The notes: generated by a model not told the origin, from the letters alone. Counted from the stretch's first letter, positions 34,740-43,178 are shown. The stretch: 64,000 bases of DNA from Candidatus Heimdallarchaeota archaeon (GCA_016839945.1 JAEOTE010000027.1:9015-73014), one strand, 5' to 3'. A program made the numbers and translations.

Positions 34740-36110
34740 TTAGGAGAAAAAGAGAACGAAATCTTCAAAATTCAATGGATAGGATAATCTATTTTCTATC
34801 CCTTTTTCTTCTGCATAGTTACTGATTATAACTCTTTTATTTGCACATAGTTTTGAAACTAAGAAAATTGCATTTTTAAAATAAACATGATTTACTAAAC
34901 ATTCAATATGATTAATTTCTTCTATTTTCTTTATGTTCAACTTTGATTTCCAATCTTCACATGGTCCCCCACAATAATATCTAATTGGACATTCCTTACA
35001 TTCTAAAGTAAATATATCTTTTGATTTTTTAAATTCAGTAATGTTGTTAGAAAATAATCCTTCAGACATTGAACCTATCTTATATTTCTCAATACCAATT
35101 AATCCAGAGCATGGATAAAAATTCATATCTGGGCTAATGGCAATTTCATTCTTTCCTGCTAAACATCTTTTATAATATCTCTTTCTAGAGATTATTCTGT
35201 CAATGAATCTAGCGAGATAATCAGATGAACCAAGTTTATAAAGAAAATCTAGTAATTCCTCTTCATTTAATGATAGAAGTTTCTCTATTAGTTTTACTAG
35301 TTCAAGTTTAAAATCCGAAACTGATTTTTCTGTCCATGGTATTTTGGAATTTGGTGTAACTCTAACAGGTCTCATTGAAACATAATTGAATGATTTCATA
35401 TAAGTTGAATAAGTGCTGAAGAGATTAATCATTTTAGAATTTAAAGGTATAATGCAATGCTTTACAACTGTTGCATCAAATCTTGAAATATTTTTTAGTA
35501 CAGTTTCAATCTGTTCTTTATTTTCAAGATCTAGTGATACATTGACATAACCATATTCATTGATGAAATCCACAAATTCATCTGACAAACTCATTAAATT
35601 TGTTGAAGCAGGAAAGAGATAGAAATCAAAATTATATTCTTTTTTAATCTGATTAACATACCGTTCTACTTCTTTGAATAATGAAAAGTCTAATGTAATT
35701 TCACTTGTGAAAAACATAGAAACTGCTAAAGGTGTAGTTGAATTTAGTTTGTTCTTATAATCTGCAAAATAACTGATTGTACGTTGTATATCAATCAGTG
35801 ATATTCTTTCAAAATCTATATGATGATAATCTCTTGAATAACAGTACCAACAATCTAAATTACACTCGAATGTTGGATTGATGACTATGTGTTTAATATC
35901 TTCTTTTAATTCCTTAATATCAATTACAAGCTCTTTTGTCTGTTTGAAAAAATTGTATTTCTTCAATTGATCAATATTTGAAAGTAGACTATCATCTTCT
36001 AAATCCTTAACAAACCAAAACATCTGAGAGTATGGATCTAAGATAAAAAATTGATCATTAATTTCATACAAATACATATCATCTGAGGATTTGATCATAT
36101 CAATCAGCAT
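34740..36110 (-). CDS. Radical SAM / SPASM-domain peptide- or protein-modifying maturase
   Basis: 'NPTFECNLDCWYCYS' (Cx3Cx2C) and C-terminal 'CKECPIRYYCGGPC' (Cx2Cx5Cx3C), preceded by 'CLAGKNEIAISPDMNFYPCSG'. This is the SPASM twin auxiliary-cluster signature. Confidence 0.8.
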   Translation of the reverse strand: MLIDMIKSSDDMYLYEINDQFFILDPYSQMFWFVKDLEDDSLLSNIDQLKKYNFFKQTKELVIDIKELKEDIKHIVINPTFECNLDCWYCYSRDYHHIDFERISLIDIQRTISYFADYKNKLNSTTPLAVSMFFTSEITLDFSLFKEVERYVNQIKKEYNFDFYLFPASTNLMSLSDEFVDFINEYGYVNVSLDLENKEQIETVLKNISRFDATVVKHCIIPLNSKMINLFSTYSTYMKSFNYVSMRPVRVTPNSKIPWTEKSVSDFKLELVKLIEKLLSLNEEELLDFLYKLGSSDYLARFIDRIISRKRYYKRCLAGKNEIAISPDMNFYPCSGLIGIEKYKIGSMSEGLFSNNITEFKKSKDIFTLECKECPIRYYCGGPCEDWKSKLNIKKIEEINHIECLVNHVYFKNAIFLVSKLCANKRVIISNYAEEKGIENRLSYPLNFEDFVLFFS

Positions 36111-36289
36111 GTTGATTCTGATTCAAGTCTTTCTTCATCATCTTGTAAAAACACAGCAACCTTCTCTAGCGCATCATCTTTTTTTTGAAATTTTCCAATA
36201 ATTTTGTTATCTCTAGTGTCTTTAACAACCCACCAGTTTTCTTCGTCTTTATAGATTTCAAAATCACCACAGGTTTCCTTATCTGACAT
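36104..36289 (-). CDS. 61-aa acidic protein, YegP/DUF1508-like repeat; candidate substrate or partner of the SPASM maturase
   Basis: 'GDFEIYKDEENWWVVKDTRDNKIIGKFQKKDDALEKV' resembles one YegP repeat. The stop overlaps the maturase ATG (ACATGCTGA). ATG at 36289 is preferred to the TTG at 36304. Confidence 0.5.
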   Translation of the reverse strand: MSDKETCGDFEIYKDEENWWVVKDTRDNKIIGKFQKKDDALEKVAVFLQDDEERLESESTC

Positions 36290-36401
36290 AGTATCTATCG
36301 TCAAATAAACGAATTGCTATAAATGGTTTTCTTTCAAACTTCTTGATTAAATGAGACCAACAAAAAAACTATAAGTTAGAAAAATAGTGTCATGATACAC
36401 A

Positions 36402-36923
36402 ATGACTGAACGTAATTACAAAATCTCGCTTTGTGGTAATCCAGGAGTGGGAAAAACATCACTTGCTATGAGACGAGCTCAAAATTCATTCCCAGAGTCT
36501 CATCAACCAACCCTAGGTTCTAACTTTTTTATTTGGAATACACAGATTGATGCAAAGGACTTAAGACTCATAATAGCTGATTCAGGCTCTCAAGAAAGGT
36601 TTTACTCCATTCTCCCTAAATATTTTCAAGGTTCATTTGCAGCTGCTATTGTTTATGATATAACAGACAAAGAAAGTTTTGAAAGACTTGATTTTTGGAT
36701 AGAAAAACTGAAAGATAGTGTAGGAGATATACCATTCATTATTGTTGGTAATAAATTAGATCTTGAAATGGATAGGGTGATCTCAAAAGAAGACGGAGAA
36801 AAATTTGCAGAAGGATTAGGTGCAGAATTCTTCGAAGTTTCAGCAATGAAGAAAACAAACTTGAGTCAAATGTTTACAAATTTAGCACGAACAGTCATTG
36901 ATCAAGATAAAGATACTGAATGA
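36402..36923 (+). CDS. Ras/Rab-like small GTPase
   Basis: G1 'GNPGVGKTS', G2 region 'QPTLGSNF', G3 'DSGSQERF' (atypical), G4 'GNKLD', G5 'SAMK'. 173 aa, with no C-terminal Cys. Confidence 0.85.
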   Translation: MTERNYKISLCGNPGVGKTSLAMRRAQNSFPESHQPTLGSNFFIWNTQIDAKDLRLIIADSGSQERFYSILPKYFQGSFAAAIVYDITDKESFERLDFWIEKLKDSVGDIPFIIVGNKLDLEMDRVISKEDGEKFAEGLGAEFFEVSAMKKTNLSQMFTNLARTVIDQDKDTE

Positions 36924-36956
36924 GATTAAATTTTACTAATTTGAGGAGAATCAAAG

Positions 36957-38177
36957 ATGGAAGAGCTTGAAAAAATGGAAAATCTCTCTACTAACTTACT
37001 TATTACAAGTATCCCATTTGTTGAAGCTGATTTAGGACTTTTCACAACTGTAATTATGACAGGAGATGAAGTAACACAAGATGTTTCAACAATTATGCAA
37101 CTAGAAGAAGCTAAAGAGAGTATTAACATTCTAGATGAGTTTCCTGATAAAGAAATTATTTTCAAATCTTCAAAATATGAGTTTATAGATACATCTGAAG
37201 ATAAAAGAAAAACACCTAGCCTCTATATTATTAAACAAGATTACAATGAGATTTCTTTACTAAACATCATAGTTAGTCCAATTTCTGAGCTAAATATAAC
37301 AAAAACTTCTGAGGTAATTGATTACATAGCTCAATCAACAGCTGGTGTTTTTAGAAGAACTGATACATTAAGAAACAATGACAGTTTATCTGAAGAAGAA
37401 CAACAAGATGAGTTGAGAAAGAACCTTCGAGATCTAGTTGAATTTTACCAATGGCAGATATTAAGTGAAGAGAGTCTTCAGAAGAGCACTGAACAAGGTG
37501 TTCAGGCTCCGATGATAACTAATTCCCTATTACTAAAAGCAGAGATTATCAGAGATCAAGTTCAATGTATGGGGGGTTGTGGTAAGACTTTTAGCAAAGA
37601 AACAGCTCCAGCAGGAGTTCAATGTGAGTGTGGAGGAGAAATTGTGATTACACCACCTTCATTAAATTTAGCAAAAGTTTCTTATGTTTACCCAGAAGGA
37701 TTGAAAGAAATAATTAACAATGAAAATGCTATAACTCCCGAGAGCTTATTGATGTATACTAAAGAATCCATTATGTCTCCTAAATTATTAACCTCATTAA
37801 ACCAACTTTCTTCTTTGAAATTTCATGATTTTATCTCAATACCATCAATGATAGGATATAAATCTAAACTTACTAATGATCTTATTAATGTTCATCTGAA
37901 TTATTTTCTAAGTAGTGAGGATGAGATTTATATTTTCACTTGTACAACTGACACTAGATATAGCGATCAGAGACTTGTTTCTGCAGTATCTTTACCAGTC
38001 ATTATGAGAGCGTTTCAGTCAAATTTCCAAGGAGAAAATAACTGGAAAGAGGTTATACAAAGATCTGAATTAAAGGATTGGATAACTACTCCATTTGTGA
38101 AAATAAAAACATTGAATCAATTCTCATCTTTATCAGATATCTTGGCACTTGAAATTAGGAGTGATAGCAATGAGTGA
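36957..38177 (+). CDS. Hypothetical 406-aa protein with internal 4-Cys zinc ribbon, co-operonic with the GTPase
   Basis: 'gaggag' SD, 33 nt after the GTPase stop. Contains 'CMGGCGKTFSKETAPAGVQCECGG'. No other recognisable motif. Confidence 0.6.
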   Translation: MEELEKMENLSTNLLITSIPFVEADLGLFTTVIMTGDEVTQDVSTIMQLEEAKESINILDEFPDKEIIFKSSKYEFIDTSEDKRKTPSLYIIKQDYNEISLLNIIVSPISELNITKTSEVIDYIAQSTAGVFRRTDTLRNNDSLSEEEQQDELRKNLRDLVEFYQWQILSEESLQKSTEQGVQAPMITNSLLLKAEIIRDQVQCMGGCGKTFSKETAPAGVQCECGGEIVITPPSLNLAKVSYVYPEGLKEIINNENAITPESLLMYTKESIMSPKLLTSLNQLSSLKFHDFISIPSMIGYKSKLTNDLINVHLNYFLSSEDEIYIFTCTTDTRYSDQRLVSAVSLPVIMRAFQSNFQGENNWKEVIQRSELKDWITTPFVKIKTLNQFSSLSDILALEIRSDSNE

Positions 38178-39459
38178 TGAAATTAAAGAATCACAGTCCT
38201 TCTTTTATTCCCCAAAAGATGTTGTTGATGTAGTAAGTGAGTTTCAAAAACTCTTTTCTAAACTGGAATCAAATATCAAGCATTTCATTGTATCTCAACC
38301 AACATTCTTAATTGAATTGAGGAGAAAAATTAAAACAGAAATAGGGTTTCTATCACCACAAAAGAAAGATATGGCTTTGGCTATTTTTGGTATAATCGTT
38401 ACAGAAGATATAATAAAGAAATATGACCCTATCTTCTTTGCTGAGGATATCTCAGCTTTGATGGATGCTACAGATAAGAAAACATCATGTACAGATGATG
38501 AATTTATTGGATTGTTAACATCATTCCTGAATACTCTAAAAACAGTTACTCATTCAATCACTATAATAATAAACAACTTCATATCGTTGAAAAGCTTAAA
38601 CCTTGAGGATAGAATAACAAGACAGATTCTTATACAAAGGCATTTTTCAACTGCTTTAACAGAAGCTAACCTCTGCTTTGAAGTTGGAGAATTTAAAATA
38701 GATTTACGTTTCATTATTTCCATATTTGCACATATTATAGAAAAACTATTAGAAGAAAATGAAGTTATTGAAAAAGCAAAATCTGCTGGTATGATATATG
38801 AAGGGATAATTAAAACATACCCATTGAAAGAGGGTGAAGATATTCTCTATGATATAATCAATATTAATATAATTGAGTCCTATTATGATTTGATTTCTCA
38901 AGCTTTCGAATCAAAGATTCAGAAAAGACTAGAAGTAGCTCATGAACAGCAAGTTGAAATTCAAAGAGAATTTCAAAGATCATCAGAACAACAAACAGAT
39001 CAAGGTAGAATAGAACAAATTTTGGCTTCTATTGAGCAAGCACTTTATGAAGTAATGAAAATTCAAAGAGAAATGACAGAAGCTAAACGTCAAAACCTAG
39101 AGAAAAACATTGAGAAAGTTATGCGAAGATTAGCTATTGAAGAGTTTGGTGTTCAAGATATAGCTGATCAACAAAAGTATATGCAATATGTCTTAGATAC
39201 TTGGTTTAGTATATTCGAGGAATACCCACAAATGTGTTTACCTCTAATCGATGTAAAACAGTATACCAAATTTGTTTCAGATCCTGTTGAATATATTGAA
39301 GAAAATAAACAAACGATAATACAGCAACTTCAATTTAAGATAAGAAGGCATACTACAGGTGAAAGATTCACTCCAGGTAATTTGGCTAATGCTTTTTCCC
39401 ATATAATTTATGAAATAACTACAAATTCTTCAGTACTAACTCTAACTTTTGATAAATAA
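38170..39459 (+). CDS. Hypothetical 429-aa helical/coiled-coil protein, translationally coupled to 36957-38177
   Basis: The ATG at 38170 overlaps the upstream stop (ATGAGTGA) and is preceded by 'ggag'. Central coiled-coil-like 'HEQQVEIQREFQRSSEQQTDQGRIEQILASIEQALYEVMKIQREM'. Confidence 0.6.
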   Translation: MSDEIKESQSFFYSPKDVVDVVSEFQKLFSKLESNIKHFIVSQPTFLIELRRKIKTEIGFLSPQKKDMALAIFGIIVTEDIIKKYDPIFFAEDISALMDATDKKTSCTDDEFIGLLTSFLNTLKTVTHSITIIINNFISLKSLNLEDRITRQILIQRHFSTALTEANLCFEVGEFKIDLRFIISIFAHIIEKLLEENEVIEKAKSAGMIYEGIIKTYPLKEGEDILYDIININIIESYYDLISQAFESKIQKRLEVAHEQQVEIQREFQRSSEQQTDQGRIEQILASIEQALYEVMKIQREMTEAKRQNLEKNIEKVMRRLAIEEFGVQDIADQQKYMQYVLDTWFSIFEEYPQMCLPLIDVKQYTKFVSDPVEYIEENKQTIIQQLQFKIRRHTTGERFTPGNLANAFSHIIYEITTNSSVLTLTFDK

Positions 39460-39593
39460 GAATAACTCCCTCCTACGCATTTGGTAATACTGCTTCAAGA
39501 AAAAATACTTAAAAAAACTTCGATTGAAGAAGAAACTGCCTAGACAACAAAAAAAAGAATAAATTTTTATCATAGAAAGAAACTGACTTCTTG

Positions 39594-40436
39594 ATGAGTG
39601 AAGAAATTGAATTTAAAGAAATGAAAGATTTTGGTGAATACGACATTCTAGAGGACATTCAAAAAGATGCTTGGGGAATGCCTGCAAGAGAGTTAGTCCC
39701 CAAAAGGTTAATGTATGCCACACTCAAAAGTGGGGGGGTAGTTATTGGTGCTTACAAGGGAGAAGAGATTATAGGTTATTGCTGGGGTTGGGTCGGAAAA
39801 AAAGAAAAAAACGAATTTTTCATTTACTCTCATCACAATGCTGTAAGAAAAGAGTACCAGAACAGTAGTATTGGATACAATTTGAAATTAAAACAAAGAG
39901 AATGGGCTCTAGATCATGGTTATGAACAAATAAACTGGACATTTGATCCACTTCAATCTAAAAACTGTTACTTGAATTTTCACAAATTGGGAGTAGTTTG
40001 CAATTCTTACAATACAAAATATTGGGGAGACATGCATGACAATCTCAATAGAGGTATTGATACAGATCGTTTCTACTGTAATTGGATCTTGAATTCTCAA
40101 AATGTTCAAAAACATATCAAACAAGATTTTACTGATTACAGCAAGCTAAGTTTACATCGAAAGTATCATACCATTGAAACGGAAATGGAAGACGCTTTTG
40201 TTTGTGTCAGAAAGATAAAACTTGAACTTGAATTACCAATACTGTTTGCTAGAACTCCTCCTAATTTTCAAGAAATATTAGAAAACAATATAGAATTAAT
40301 TAAAGATTGGAGAGAGAAAACTAGAGAAGTTTTTACAACATATTTTCAAAATGGTTACAAAGTTGTAGATTTTGTTATCAGGAAAATTCCAGAAGTAGTA
40401 GATTGTTTCCACGTATTGAAAAAAAATGAGGATTAG
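39594..40436 (+). CDS. GNAT-superfamily acyltransferase-like protein
   Basis: 'VIGAYKGEEIIGYCWGWVG', 'VRKEYQNSSIGYNLKLKQREWALDHGYEQINWTFDPLQSKNCYLNFHKLGV' is an acyl-CoA N-acyltransferase-like core. Confidence 0.55.
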   Translation: MSEEIEFKEMKDFGEYDILEDIQKDAWGMPARELVPKRLMYATLKSGGVVIGAYKGEEIIGYCWGWVGKKEKNEFFIYSHHNAVRKEYQNSSIGYNLKLKQREWALDHGYEQINWTFDPLQSKNCYLNFHKLGVVCNSYNTKYWGDMHDNLNRGIDTDRFYCNWILNSQNVQKHIKQDFTDYSKLSLHRKYHTIETEMEDAFVCVRKIKLELELPILFARTPPNFQEILENNIELIKDWREKTREVFTTYFQNGYKVVDFVIRKIPEVVDCFHVLKKNED

Positions 40437-40492
40437 TACAAATATATATAGTGAATTATTGTTTATTATGCAAATACATACATGGTGTTAAA

Positions 40493-41599
40493 ATGAAGAT
40501 AGATAAAATTGGGATATTCCTTGTTAAAATGGAGTTAAAACACCCTTTCAGAACAAGCTTTGGAGTTACAAAAGAACGAGATGTATTATTAGTCAGTCTG
40601 CACTCGGGAGATAAAACTGGGTGGGGAGAATGTGTAGCAGAACATGGACCATGGTATAGTGAAGAGACAATTACATCATGTAAACACACAATCACAGAAT
40701 ATATTATTCCTTGGATAAAGAAAGCTAAATTTGACCACCCCAAAGAATTTCCAAGTATTGTTCAAAAAATCAAAGGGAACCATATGGCTAAAGCATGTGT
40801 TGAAGATGCGATTTGGGATTTATATGGTAAATTAGAAGAAAAAACTCTCAGAGAATTAATTAAGGGAGAGAAAAAAACGATCCCTTCGGGAATATCTTTA
40901 GGTATTCAACAGGATTTTGAAACATTATTAAAGAAAATTCAAAATGCAATTGAGCAAAAATACAAAAGAATTAAGATAAAAATCGAACCAGGTTGGGATG
41001 TTGAAATAGTTAGAAAAATTAGGGATAAGTATTCTGATTTACCATTAATGGTTGATGCTAACAGTGCTTACAGATTAAAAGATGAGGATGTCTTCTTAGC
41101 CCTAGACAAATATGATTTAATGATGATAGAACAACCTCTCCAAAGTTATGATATTATGGATCATGTCAAACTGCAGAAGAAACTAAGCACTCCACTTTGT
41201 TTAGATGAATCAATAAAATCTGTTGATGACGCCAGAGTAGCAATTGAGTATGATGCATGTAAAATCATAAATGTAAAACCTGCAAGAGTAGGAGGAATAA
41301 CTGAAACATTGAAAATTCACGAATTAGCTGATTTACTTAAAATACCTTTATGGTGTGGAGGTATGCTAGAAACTGGAATAGGTAGAGCAAAAAATGTTGC
41401 AGTAGCTAGTTTGTCAACATTTACGTTACCAAATGACATTAGTGAAAGTGCAAGATATTATACAAATTATCTAATAGATCCAATTTTTGAATTAACAGAG
41501 AATGGAACACTAGATGTACCATCTAAACTTCCAGGAATTGGAGTTTCAATTAAGAATGAAGCAATAGAAAGAAACCTAAAAGAGAAATTAGAATTGTAA
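40493..41599 (+). CDS. Enolase-superfamily enzyme, o-succinylbenzoate synthase / N-acylamino-acid racemase (OSBS/NSAR) subgroup
   Basis: 'KRIKIKIEPGWD' (KxK), metal ligands in 'MVDANSAY', 'MIEQPL' and 'CLDESI', and a second Lys in 'INVKPARVGG'. The ATG at 40493 has a 'ggtg' SD. Confidence 0.8.
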   Translation: MKIDKIGIFLVKMELKHPFRTSFGVTKERDVLLVSLHSGDKTGWGECVAEHGPWYSEETITSCKHTITEYIIPWIKKAKFDHPKEFPSIVQKIKGNHMAKACVEDAIWDLYGKLEEKTLRELIKGEKKTIPSGISLGIQQDFETLLKKIQNAIEQKYKRIKIKIEPGWDVEIVRKIRDKYSDLPLMVDANSAYRLKDEDVFLALDKYDLMMIEQPLQSYDIMDHVKLQKKLSTPLCLDESIKSVDDARVAIEYDACKIINVKPARVGGITETLKIHELADLLKIPLWCGGMLETGIGRAKNVAVASLSTFTLPNDISESARYYTNYLIDPIFELTENGTLDVPSKLPGIGVSIKNEAIERNLKEKLEL

Positions 41600-41615: not shown

Positions 41616-42623
41616 TTATACTTCTAATGGAGATATTGTCCAAAAAATAGCTTCTAACATCTTCGATTTAAAATCATATGTAGTTGTGAAACTTGCTGAA
41701 AAGAATGGCATTCCAGCAATATAACGTTGAAGTCCTGTGAAAAATTTTGCATAAGAAGTGCTTGCTTTTTCAATGTTATCTGGTAGAGAAACTACAAGTG
41801 CAATTTTCAGATTTGACTTCAAATTTGAAAGTAAATCAAATATTGGTTTGTATTTTTTAGTACCTACATCTACTAAGAATATCAAAGCTTCTTGGGAATT
41901 TATGAAATCTTCATCTGCATGAGTATCTCTTCTGAAATTAAAAGAATAGTTTGCAGTTTTAATCAATGCTTTATTTTCATCATAATTAGTTTCTTTATAG
42001 GGAAGTGATGAAAGAAAAGAGGAGTAATAGGTTTTTACTAAACTTATGTATTCTTTTGGATAGATAATTGCAAGATTTTTTCGCTTTATTCTCTTTTTCG
42101 AAGCTTCTTTAACAACTAAGAAATCTATGATTTGCTCAGACAGAGTACTTGCTTGTTGAGAGCTAAGTAAATTTGTTACAATTTTATTATATGATTTTAT
42201 GATATCGCCTAAGAAAGTTTTGTTAATTTCTTCAATTTTATAGACATTATGAAATTTATAAATCAGAATTTTTGCCAGTTCTTCGCGAAAAGCATCTATT
42301 TTTGATACCATTTCAGGTACTAACATTAGGATTAATCCTAGTGTTTTCTTCTTCATCCTTTTATCTTTCATTTTCTTATCTTCAACAATAAAAGAAAAAG
42401 CATATTGAACAAAACCAGAAGAAAAAGCAAAAGGAAATGGTCCAAATAATTCTGAAGGTAAATCATCAAGTGTTATCATACCTTGAAACACTAGAGAATA
42501 AGTTATTGATCCAGAAAATTGGAATTTCTCAATTACTGTTTCATCAAACTCAACATTTTTGTCTACTACCATGTTTACGAGACTAGGTCCAACATCTTCT
42601 AGTTTGAACAAACAAATAAGCAT
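41616..42623 (-). CDS. Hypothetical protein: longin/roadblock-like N-domain plus degenerate small-GTPase-like C-domain (paralogous layout to 17339-18400)
   Basis: See finding. 'ICLFKLEDVGPSL...ELFGPFPFAF...YAFSFIVEDKK', then 'NLAIIYPKEYISLVKTYY...EALIFLVDVG...KIALVVSLPD...PFFSASF'. Confidence 0.4.
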   Translation of the reverse strand: MLICLFKLEDVGPSLVNMVVDKNVEFDETVIEKFQFSGSITYSLVFQGMITLDDLPSELFGPFPFAFSSGFVQYAFSFIVEDKKMKDKRMKKKTLGLILMLVPEMVSKIDAFREELAKILIYKFHNVYKIEEINKTFLGDIIKSYNKIVTNLLSSQQASTLSEQIIDFLVVKEASKKRIKRKNLAIIYPKEYISLVKTYYSSFLSSLPYKETNYDENKALIKTANYSFNFRRDTHADEDFINSQEALIFLVDVGTKKYKPIFDLLSNLKSNLKIALVVSLPDNIEKASTSYAKFFTGLQRYIAGMPFFSASFTTTYDFKSKMLEAIFWTISPLEV

Positions 42624-42662: not shown

Positions 42663-43178
42663 TTATGATAAAAGCTGGGAGATGAGAGAAATTACTTCTT
42701 CTTCATTCTTAGCTTCATAAATCACATCTAATCTTTTATTGTCAATCTTTTCTCCTGCTAATTTGTCAGACCAACCACCTGATGTAGAAATTGATATTAT
42801 TTTTTTATTCATTTGCCATGCAAATGCTATTTCAGAAAGAGTTCCTGCTCCTCCACCAATTGAAATTACGATATCAGAGGATGCAATTATTATCTGATTT
42901 CTTGAATAAGACATACCTGTAGCTATTTTTATGTCTATGTAAGGATTCGTTGAAGAAGTATCTAAAGAAGGGAGGATACCAACAGTCATACCTTCTTTAT
43001 AATTTGATGATTCTTTTGCTCCTTTACATATTGAACTCATAACTCCCCCTAAACCTCCGCACAAAATTCTATAATCATTATCAATTAATAATTGTCCTAG
43101 TTTCTCTGTCATTTTACTTAGATCTGAATTTTCTGCTATATCTCCAAAACCTATAACAGCAACTTGTACTTTTACCAT
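42663..43178 (-). CDS. LOG / TIGR00725-family Rossmann-fold protein (lysine-decarboxylase-like)
   Basis: 'VAVIGFGD', 'ILCGGLGGVMSSICKGA' and 'ISIGGGAGTLSEIAFAW' (PGGxGTxxE-like motif). Confidence 0.75.
   Translation of the reverse strand: MVKVQVAVIGFGDIAENSDLSKMTEKLGQLLIDNDYRILCGGLGGVMSSICKGAKESSNYKEGMTVGILPSLDTSSTNPYIDIKIATGMSYSRNQIIIASSDIVISIGGGAGTLSEIAFAWQMNKKIISISTSGGWSDKLAGEKIDNKRLDVIYEAKNEEEVISLISQLLS

Follow-up and report, generated by a model that had tools for sequence, protein, structure and literature searches.

The 64-kb window analysed here (the whole stretch JAEOTE010000027.1:9015-73014 of a Candidatus Heimdallarchaeota archaeon, GCA_016839945.1, with a G+C content of about 31%) encodes a Rab-like small GTPase, followed on the same strand by the genes of two larger proteins that we call A (406 residues) and B (429 residues counted from its ATG). 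A and B constitute an Asgard-specific, translationally coupled gene pair that belongs to no described family, and in several lineages the pair is enriched beside genes of Ras-family GTPases. What evolution has conserved is the pair and not the trio, because A and B are found together in all 11 genomic contexts while the GTPase gene is often absent. The linkage to the GTPase is recurrent but not universal. Our best reading, which we hold only tentatively, is that A and B build a heterodimer specific to the Asgard archaea that partners and controls a Rab-like GTPase.

In Asgard archaea, eukaryote-like small GTPases number in the dozens, and their switches and targets are almost uncharacterised. 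The A-B pair provides a concrete, clonable candidate consisting of two soluble proteins whose conservation spans Asgard classes and whose genes are repeatedly linked to those of Rab-like GTPases. If the link to the GTPase is true it adds a regulator or effector architecture and bears on Rab regulation before the eukaryotes, and if it is false A and B are still a well-delimited Asgard-specific pair. The pair is real and previously undescribed, and its GTPase connection, on the theme of a small GTPase with operon-encoded partners, is credible but unproven.

Conservation of the A-B gene pair

Searching 1.84 billion representative proteins with the B profile retrieved 36 matches, which are clusters at 50% identity. 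All named matches are from Asgard archaea (Heimdallarchaeota, Kariarchaeaceae, Hodarchaeales, Jordarchaeia, Thorarchaeota, Odinarchaeota, and 'Asgardarchaeia'), and the search with the A profile added one member labelled Lokiarchaeota. Neither the B profile in these representatives nor the A profile detected eukaryotic or bacterial homologues. A and B are two separate families, each specific to Asgard archaea and outside any described family.

The gene contexts comprise the Heimdallarchaeaceae (26 GTDB species) and ten loci outside this family (L031 to L040), and in each of these 11 independent Asgard contexts the A and B genes are neighbours on one strand that overlap or almost do so. The distance from A to B is between -17 and +2 nucleotides (nt) in nine contexts, +16 nt in the locus labelled Lokiarchaeota (L039), and +64 nt in the Odinarchaeota locus (L038). 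In the window, the stop codon of A overlaps the ATG of B (ATGAGTGA, 8 nt), and in the Heimdallarchaeota relatives the two genes overlap or abut as well (0-11 nt). In every case B is preceded by an A homologue, as judged by hhalign (probability 98-99.9% in the four cases tested) and hmmsearch (1.8e-13 to 1.8e-68), and the gene following the A gene of L039 is a B homologue with a probability of 100%. In the Thorarchaeota locus (L035), which also has the order A, B, the contig ends at the A gene.

Recurrent linkage to GTPase genes

A Ras-family GTPase gene lies immediately beside the pair in three groups of lineages whose flanks differ, namely the Heimdallarchaeaceae, the clade of L031 and L040, and the Kariarchaeaceae. 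Within the Heimdallarchaeaceae, all loci of the 26 species that extend far enough show the order GTPase, A, B. In L031, a Ras-type GTPase of 181 residues, A, and a B-like protein are encoded on the same strand by overlapping genes, and the flanks are unrelated. L040 belongs to the same clade, which is distant from the window, but has other flanks; it was recovered from metagenomes with a narrow B alignment (contig Ga0114931_10005997, 2263-6489). It shows a four-gene array with two GTPases, namely an Arf-like GTPase of 336 residues and a Ras-type GTPase of 171 residues, followed by A (8-nt overlap) and B (2-nt gap). In this clade, the GTPase gene overlaps A by 8-35 nt. The Kariarchaeaceae locus (L033) encodes two Rab-like GTPases of 584 and 588 residues upstream of A and B, adjacent and divergent, and in the Hodarchaeales (L036) an Arf-like GTPase gene is found two genes off the pair. 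All GTPase genes in the fetched flanks are located not more than two genes from A-B. Because the MKD1 genome contains 74 small-GTPase-related sequences (PMC10933270), we estimate that about 1.9% of the genes encode small GTPases. At this background, three immediate GTPase neighbours in the nine fully visible contexts correspond to a binomial P of about 0.004.

An earlier sequence-only reading of this stretch had proposed that A and B are a cognate regulator/effector pair, of a type not described before, for the neighbouring GTPase, and had asked whether the gene order is conserved in related genomes. The order is conserved, the families are new, and the trio recurs in the distant L031/L040 clade. 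The proposal is partly supported, and it has to be modified in that A-B is the conserved unit and that the GTPase is often absent.

Two further hypotheses were rejected. The Arf-like neighbours in the Hodarchaeales and in L040 show only weak G-domain similarity and are not regarded as orthologues. In the Jordarchaeia locus a GTPase gene might have been missed in the 795 nt that precede A, but no such open reading frame (ORF) is present there.

The two Kariarchaeaceae GTPases (L033 753-4402, minus strand) each consist of an N-terminal Rab-like G domain and a tail of about 400 residues; the tails are acidic, proline-rich, repeat-containing, and probably disordered. The B homologue of L031 (P0073, 6001-8430) has an N-terminal extension of about 480 residues with a weak, repetitive OPA1_C match, which is probably a coiled coil, and fragments of an IS630-like transposase are found upstream of the L031 trio. 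By eye, the C-terminal extension of the Hodarchaeales Arf-like GTPase appears roadblock/longin-like.

Proteins A and B do not match known families

The AlphaFold2 model of A (predicted local distance difference test, pLDDT, of 75; predicted template modelling score of 0.80; pLDDT 85-91 over residues 290-400) contains two alpha/beta domains, the second of which has a zinc ribbon as an insert, and two long connecting helices. In the model, the order of the secondary structure elements in both domains is that of longin, roadblock, and PAS folds; a longin has a five-stranded sheet and the order beta-beta-alpha-beta-beta-beta-alpha-alpha. A Foldseek search of A against the PDB did not result in any match at E<=0.001. 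All matches are non-significant (E>=0.004, TM<=0.21); the best are PAS dimers, and the top TM-scores are those of the Fuzzy/Inturned chains 7q3e_B and 9rs9_B (TM 0.20, E 0.05-0.2, probability 0.15-0.21). Judged from the model, the resemblance of A to the subunits of tri-longin Rab exchange factors is thus a possible lead and not a match. Scans of A against Pfam, NCBIfam, and PADLOC and a search of the A family profile against PDB sequences did not give matches either, and when the A family members were scanned against Pfam at E<=1 the only consistent matches were generic zinc-ribbon families, located on the insert.

The ribbon reads CMGGCGK-x12-CECGG (C204, C208, C223, C225), so that the sequence-only reading was right about its presence and wrong about the spacing, given there as x13. 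Its cysteines are about 90% conserved in A across Asgard archaea. However, the ribbon is dispensable because the entire insert is naturally absent from A of one Heimdallarchaeota lineage (L002, L029, and L030). The invariant residues of the A family are G130, R134 (motif GVFRRT), P296, and W375. The ArfGAP zinc finger is CxxC-x16-CxxC-x4-R followed by a helical core. An ArfGAP assignment of A was rejected given the different ribbon (C-x3-C-x14-C-x-C), the lack of an ArfGap match in Pfam, and the missing insert in one lineage.

B is predicted to be all-helical, with 20 helices, a pLDDT of 82, and a very confident N-terminal half. Of the description of B as helical and coiled-coil, made from the sequence before, the helical character holds for the entire protein, while the only coiled-coil-like part is a poorly predicted stretch at about residues 247-326. 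No matches were found for B in Pfam, NCBIfam, or PDB sequence profiles, and Foldseek did not reveal anything at E<=0.001 (best E 0.35 in the PDB and 0.1 in BFVD). The invariant residues of the family are Y217, P218, and D228, and D93, D178, R180 (motif DLRF), and G327 are about 90% conserved. The identity of B is 47-61% across most Heimdallarchaeaceae and falls to 36-37% for the lineage that diverges most. Isoprenoid-synthase folds recurred among the Foldseek matches of B at probabilities of at most 0.12; this assignment was rejected for its low probability and because the family as a whole does not share an Asp-rich motif. Internal duplication of B was not found by hhalign (probability <=2.5%), and neither A nor B shows homology to the neighbouring protein X335 by the same method (probability <=2.5%).

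With respect to known GTPase regulators, Robl_LC7 (PF03259), a domain of ~100-160 residues with an alpha-beta-beta-alpha-beta-beta-beta fold, was not matched in Pfam even at E<=1 across 16 and 26 members of the A and B families, and roadblock structures did not match A or B significantly by Foldseek. The same is true for the TBC RabGAP, Sec7, Vps9, DENN, Cdc25 RasGEF, and RhoGAP/RasGAP families, for which neither a Pfam match nor a Foldseek match in the PDB at E<=0.001 was obtained with A or B. The earlier statements that neither partner can be placed in a known GTPase-related family, that they are not roadblocks of MglB size, and that a TBC, Sec7, or DENN signature cannot be defended are thus borne out by sequence profiles and by Foldseek on the AlphaFold2 models. 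Strong matches to well-characterised families unrelated to GTPases were likewise not found in the profile and Foldseek searches.

The Rab-like GTPase

Based on its Pfam match (Ras, residues 7-166) and its motifs, the GTPase of the window belongs to the Ras superfamily and has a Rab-like G domain; its best relatives among the solved structures in the PDB are Rab21, Ypt6, Rab35, and Rab1. It contains the G1 motif GNPGVGKT, T37 in switch I, the G4 motif NKLD, the G5 motif SAM, and the catalytic glutamine, and its G1, G4, and G5 fit the consensus sequences GxxxxGK[ST], NKxD, and SA[KM]. The protein ends with ...IDQDKDTE, its only cysteine is C11, a C-terminal prenylation cysteine (CC, CxC, or CAAX) is absent, and none of the orthologues ends in cysteine. 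Compared to the eukaryotic Rab family the GTPase has the same Ras fold, G1, G2 threonine, catalytic glutamine, G4, and G5, but differs by the missing prenylation cysteine, by the switch II sequence DSGSQE, and by its RabF motifs, which are only partly kept.

The G3/switch II motif is atypical. The glycine of the DxxG motif is replaced by serine, with a glycine one residue earlier, and the canonical DxxGQ is not present. DSGSQE is common to all 20 distinct GTPase orthologues of the Heimdallarchaeaceae, while WDTAGQE is present in the GTPases from the Kariarchaeaceae and from the L031 clade. In Ras, the DxxG glycine makes contact with the gamma-phosphate and lets switch II undergo its transition. 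Because this residue is replaced, the GTPase of the window may switch in an unusual way. The orthologues are 55-62% identical across the Heimdallarchaeaceae. The identity is 41.6% to the G domain of the 584-residue Kariarchaeaceae protein, with an LPK[FY]FQ motif in both, and 33% to the L031 GTPase.

Rate covariation and the neighbouring protein X335

Covariation of evolutionary rates was assessed by a crude mirror-tree approach, in which residual pairwise distances, after subtracting the mean of the other families, were compared for the 13-17 Heimdallarchaeota species that carry all compared genes. The approach is weak because the distances depend on one another and A comes close to saturation. 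The residual correlation (Pearson) is 0.47-0.65 for A and B, 0.63-0.70 for A and X335, and 0.70-0.76 for B and X335, the latter being encoded further downstream on the other strand. The neighbouring acetyltransferase (GNAT) and enolase-superfamily (MR/MLE) genes correlate with each other (0.34-0.50 overall, 0.34-0.45 by Pearson), while B and GNAT show negative values (-0.26 to -0.47 overall, -0.32 to -0.45 by Pearson). The covariation supports a functional unit of A and B, together with X335, and argues against a metabolic link between A-B and GNAT.

X335 has a mean column identity of 75% over 13 species, an invariant N-terminus LFKLEDxGP, and the invariant residues R89 and R113. Searches against Pfam and the PDB, including those with the profile, did not result in any match, and X335 is absent from the fetched loci outside the Heimdallarchaeaceae. 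Longins with a GP motif of the FLCN/SMCR8 type have been described from Heimdallarchaeia (PMC12290439). At the motif level, the N-terminal GP of X335, and not A, may resemble them. From its sequence, X335 may be a third component of A-B or a candidate for a GTPase-activating protein (GAP).

Possible functions of A and B

According to our best reading, A and B would most likely be obligate subunits of a soluble heterodimer. In Heimdallarchaeaceae, and in one further clade or more, this heterodimer would be expressed together with a dedicated Rab-like GTPase, which it would serve as partner complex. The two longin/roadblock-like alpha/beta domains of the A model could provide the platform binding the GTPase, and the helical B subunit would complete it. 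The nucleotide state of this GTPase would be under the control of the complex, a function as guanine nucleotide exchange factor (GEF) being somewhat likelier than one as GAP, and the DSGSQE switch II may make the Heimdallarchaeaceae GTPase dependent on such a partner. By analogy with MglB, ArvB/C, and the eukaryotic longin complexes, we rate a regulatory role as GEF or GAP somewhat above one as effector.

Several observations weigh against this reading. In five of the 11 contexts there is no GTPase gene within about six genes of A-B. These are the Jordarchaeia locus (L032), L034, the 'Asgardarchaeia' locus (L037), in which a roadblock protein is encoded two genes upstream, L038, and L039, all with the order A, B. 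In the Heimdallarchaeaceae, the whole neighbourhood of about 13 kb is syntenic and not the trio alone, and the conservation of the trio in this family is uninformative by itself because everything around it is also kept. The three lineage groups with adjacent GTPase genes may share ancestry and would then not be independent trials. The spacer between GTPase and A is 33 nt in the window and 32-33 nt in the closest relatives only, whereas it is wider in most other species (52-158 nt), and in the relatives it is often B that abuts GNAT. The tight three-gene operon of the sequence-only reading is accordingly found in this strain and its closest relatives and not in most related species. The residual correlations of the GTPase are -0.04 to 0.11 with A and 0.04 to 0.40 with B and do not support co-evolution of the GTPase with A-B. 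Neither A nor B has a significant Foldseek match to longin, roadblock, TBC, DENN, Sec7, or Vps9 structures, and an internal duplication of A was not detected by hhalign (probability <=2.5%).

The strongest alternative is a conserved Asgard heterodimer unrelated to GTPases, next to which GTPase genes are found by descent or by chance in GTPase-rich genomes. It is favoured by the contexts without a nearby GTPase, by the missing covariation, by the Heimdallarchaeaceae synteny, which makes the linkage there non-specific to the trio, and by the lack of a significant fold match to GTPase-regulator families. On the other side, chance or descent would have to explain why a GTPase adjoins in three differently flanked groups, with overlapping reading frames in L031/L040 and the low binomial probability given above, and why every GTPase gene in the fetched flanks is so close to the pair. 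On balance, we consider a function independent of GTPases rather unlikely, though a serious alternative to A-B as a GTPase partner.

A-B could also be a downstream effector, such as a scaffold, tether, or remodelling factor, that the GTPase recruits when GTP is bound, and not a GEF or GAP. The genomic linkage is as good evidence for an effector as for a regulator, B is large, helical, and strongly conserved, the coiled-coil-like extension of P0073 is more typical for scaffolds, and the pair persists in lineages without an adjacent GTPase gene. However, the known operon partners of prokaryotic small GTPases, such as MglB and ArvB/C, are mostly regulators or proposed as such (PMC10927574), the A domains have the predicted element order of GTPase-platform folds, and neither a feature for binding membranes or the cytoskeleton nor a transmembrane segment was found. 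We regard an effector function as unlikely.

In the Heimdallarchaeaceae, A-B might instead be part of a metabolic operon with GNAT and MR/MLE, an N-acyl-amino-acid racemase-like pair of enzymes. The order of these genes is invariant in the family, and in 12 related loci (about half of the species) the spacer between B and GNAT is only 2-13 nt and thus tighter than that between GTPase and A, so that the transcription unit in those relatives may be A-B-GNAT-MLE. In the window, by contrast, this spacer is AT-rich and has 131 nt. Outside the Heimdallarchaeaceae neither GNAT nor MR/MLE is found beside A-B in any of the ten contexts, and B correlates negatively with GNAT while GNAT and MLE correlate positively, which makes a metabolic role of the pair very improbable. 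Least of all do we favour a mobile or defence-type two-gene cassette, for which the sparse family, the differing neighbours between lineages, the transposase fragments near the L031 trio, and a weak match of B to PADLOC PD-T4-6 (E 2.6e-4) might speak, given that the pair has a stable position and vertical-looking divergence in 26 Heimdallarchaeota species, that B is under strong purifying selection, that typical defence domains such as nucleases, ATPases, or toxins were not found in the Pfam and PADLOC scans, and that the PD-T4-6 match is short, covers a low-confidence helical stretch, and is probably compositional.

Comparison with known GTPase systems

In terms of organisation, the closest analogue of the GTPase-A-B trio is the ArvA-ArvB-ArvC operon of Euryarchaeota (HVO_3014-3012 in Haloferax volcanii, PMC10927574). 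There, too, an archaeal small GTPase is combined with two conserved partners of uncharacterised biochemistry, one of which has a zinc ribbon. ArvB (DUF2073, SepF-like) and ArvC (DUF2072) have been proposed, not shown, to be GEF and GAP (PMC10927574). However, ArvA is Arf/Sar-like and the GTPase of the window Rab-like, and ArvB steadily follows ArvA (directly downstream in 93% of the ArvA-encoding genomes, PMC10927574) whereas A-B often occurs without a GTPase. Neither DUF2073 nor DUF2072 was matched when A, B, and the members of their families were scanned against Pfam.

MglA/MglB (with RomR-RomX) of Myxococcus and Thermus likewise is a prokaryotic Ras-like GTPase that is co-transcribed with an alpha/beta platform regulator. 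MglB, however, is a roadblock homodimer of about 160 residues (Pfam Robl_LC7), while A has 406 residues, two domains, and no Robl_LC7. A does not match MglB or LAMTOR structures significantly by Foldseek, and B does not have a counterpart in this system. The eukaryotic tri-longin Rab GEFs (Mon1-Ccz1, Fuzzy-Inturned/CPLANE, and BLOC-3) are heterodimers of multi-longin subunits acting on Rabs, to which A compares by the longin-like element order that its model shows in two domains. The differences are that A has two such domains and not three and that B is all-helical and not a longin, and Pfam matches of A or B to the Mon1, Ccz1, Fuzzy, and Inturned families were not found. The longin-DENN GAP complexes (FLCN-FNIP, C9orf72-SMCR8, and GATOR1) also regulate small GTPases as heterodimers built on longins, and longins related to theirs are reported from Heimdallarchaeia (PMC12290439). 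A, though, lacks a GP motif before beta-2, whereas its neighbour X335 has the invariant N-terminal GP. Sequence or fold evidence for a link of A or B to these GAP families was not obtained (Pfam, Foldseek for A, and hhalign).

It is doubtful, but conceivable, that A-B is an Asgard-wide heterodimeric Rab regulator composed of a di-longin-like zinc-ribbon subunit and a helical subunit. Such a complex would be either a prokaryotic relative that has diverged past recognition or an independent analogue of the eukaryotic longin GEF/GAP heterodimers, and X335 may cooperate with it in the Heimdallarchaeaceae.

Features of the locus and neighbouring genes

The features of the locus are listed in Table 1. 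The sequence-only reading had located the three ORFs correctly, and the GTPase motifs G1, G4, and G5 without a lipidation cysteine, the gap with GAGGAG in front of A (8 nt 5' of its ATG), and the overlap of the A stop with the B start were all read directly in the sequence as it had described them. Transmembrane segments were not predicted in the GTPase, A, or B, and other Ras-like ORFs are not present in the 64-kb window. A scan for sigma-70 promoters and intrinsic terminators gave the same counts as shuffled sequence and is uninformative for an archaeon.

Table 1. Positions of genes and sequence features in the window
Feature	Position	Strand	Basis
Radical-SAM/SPASM peptide-maturase-like gene	34740-36110	-	
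66-residue ORF	36104-36304	-	
Rab-like small GTPase gene, 173 residues, soluble	36402-36923	+	Pfam Ras 6.9e-43
Atypical G3/switch II D60-S-G-S-Q-E65 (canonical DTAGQE)	36579-36596	+	motif read
Spacer GTPase to A, 33 nt, Shine-Dalgarno-like GAGGAG	36924-36956	+	read directly
Protein A gene, 406 residues	36957-38177	+	ORF call
A N-terminal alpha/beta domain, residues ~10-140, beta-beta-alpha-beta-beta-beta-alpha	36984-37376	+	DSSP of AlphaFold2 model
A C-terminal alpha/beta domain, residues ~186-368, beta-beta-(ribbon)-alpha-alpha-beta-beta-beta-alpha-alpha	37512-38060	+	DSSP of AlphaFold2 model
A Cys4 zinc ribbon C204-x3-C208-x14-C223-x-C225, in first hairpin of C-terminal domain	37566-37637	+	
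A/B overlap ATGAGTGA, 8 nt, translational coupling	38170-38177	+	sequence read
Protein B gene, 429 residues from ATG	38170-39459	+	ORF call
GNAT acetyltransferase gene, co-directional with A-B	39591-40436	+	Pfam
Enolase-superfamily MR/MLE enzyme gene, co-directional with A-B	40451-41599	+	Pfam
N-acyl-amino-acid racemase-like pair (GNAT and MR/MLE)	39591-41599	+	
X335 gene, 335 residues, no assigned family	41616-42623	-	ORF
LDcluster4 (SLOG/LOG-like) gene	42663-43178	-	
PCI-domain protein gene, 859 residues	43219-45798	-	

The syntenic neighbourhood in the Heimdallarchaeaceae starts upstream with the divergent radical-SAM/SPASM gene and a short ORF of 60-66 residues, and continues downstream of B with GNAT, MR/MLE, and then X335 and the PCI-domain protein on the other strand. 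The radical-SAM/SPASM protein resembles models of the SCIFF/ranthipeptide type with scores below the cut-offs. The 66-residue ORF of the window overlaps its gene, and both are divergent from the GTPase in all long-enough Heimdallarchaeaceae loci. From their sequences, the two are a candidate precursor/maturase pair for a ribosomally synthesised and post-translationally modified peptide. PCI domains in eukaryotes mark subunits of the proteasome lid, the COP9 signalosome (CSN), and eIF3; the PCI-domain protein of the window carries a C2H2 zinc finger at its C-terminus and is conserved with the neighbourhood. An LDcluster4 gene is also found near A-B in many other Heimdallarchaeaceae loci and in the Hodarchaeales (L036 7326-8878, minus strand), where it adjoins the Arf-like GTPase gene, a recurrence that may be coincidence. 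Finally, the close relatives of the window carry Heimdallarchaeota labels with one exception. This locus, labelled 'Candidatus Thorarchaeota archaeon QM1B.68' (L017, JBHLQZ010000207.1), encodes GTPase, A, and B proteins that are 87-91% identical to those of the window, and from these sequences the Thorarchaeota label of this bin is probably wrong.

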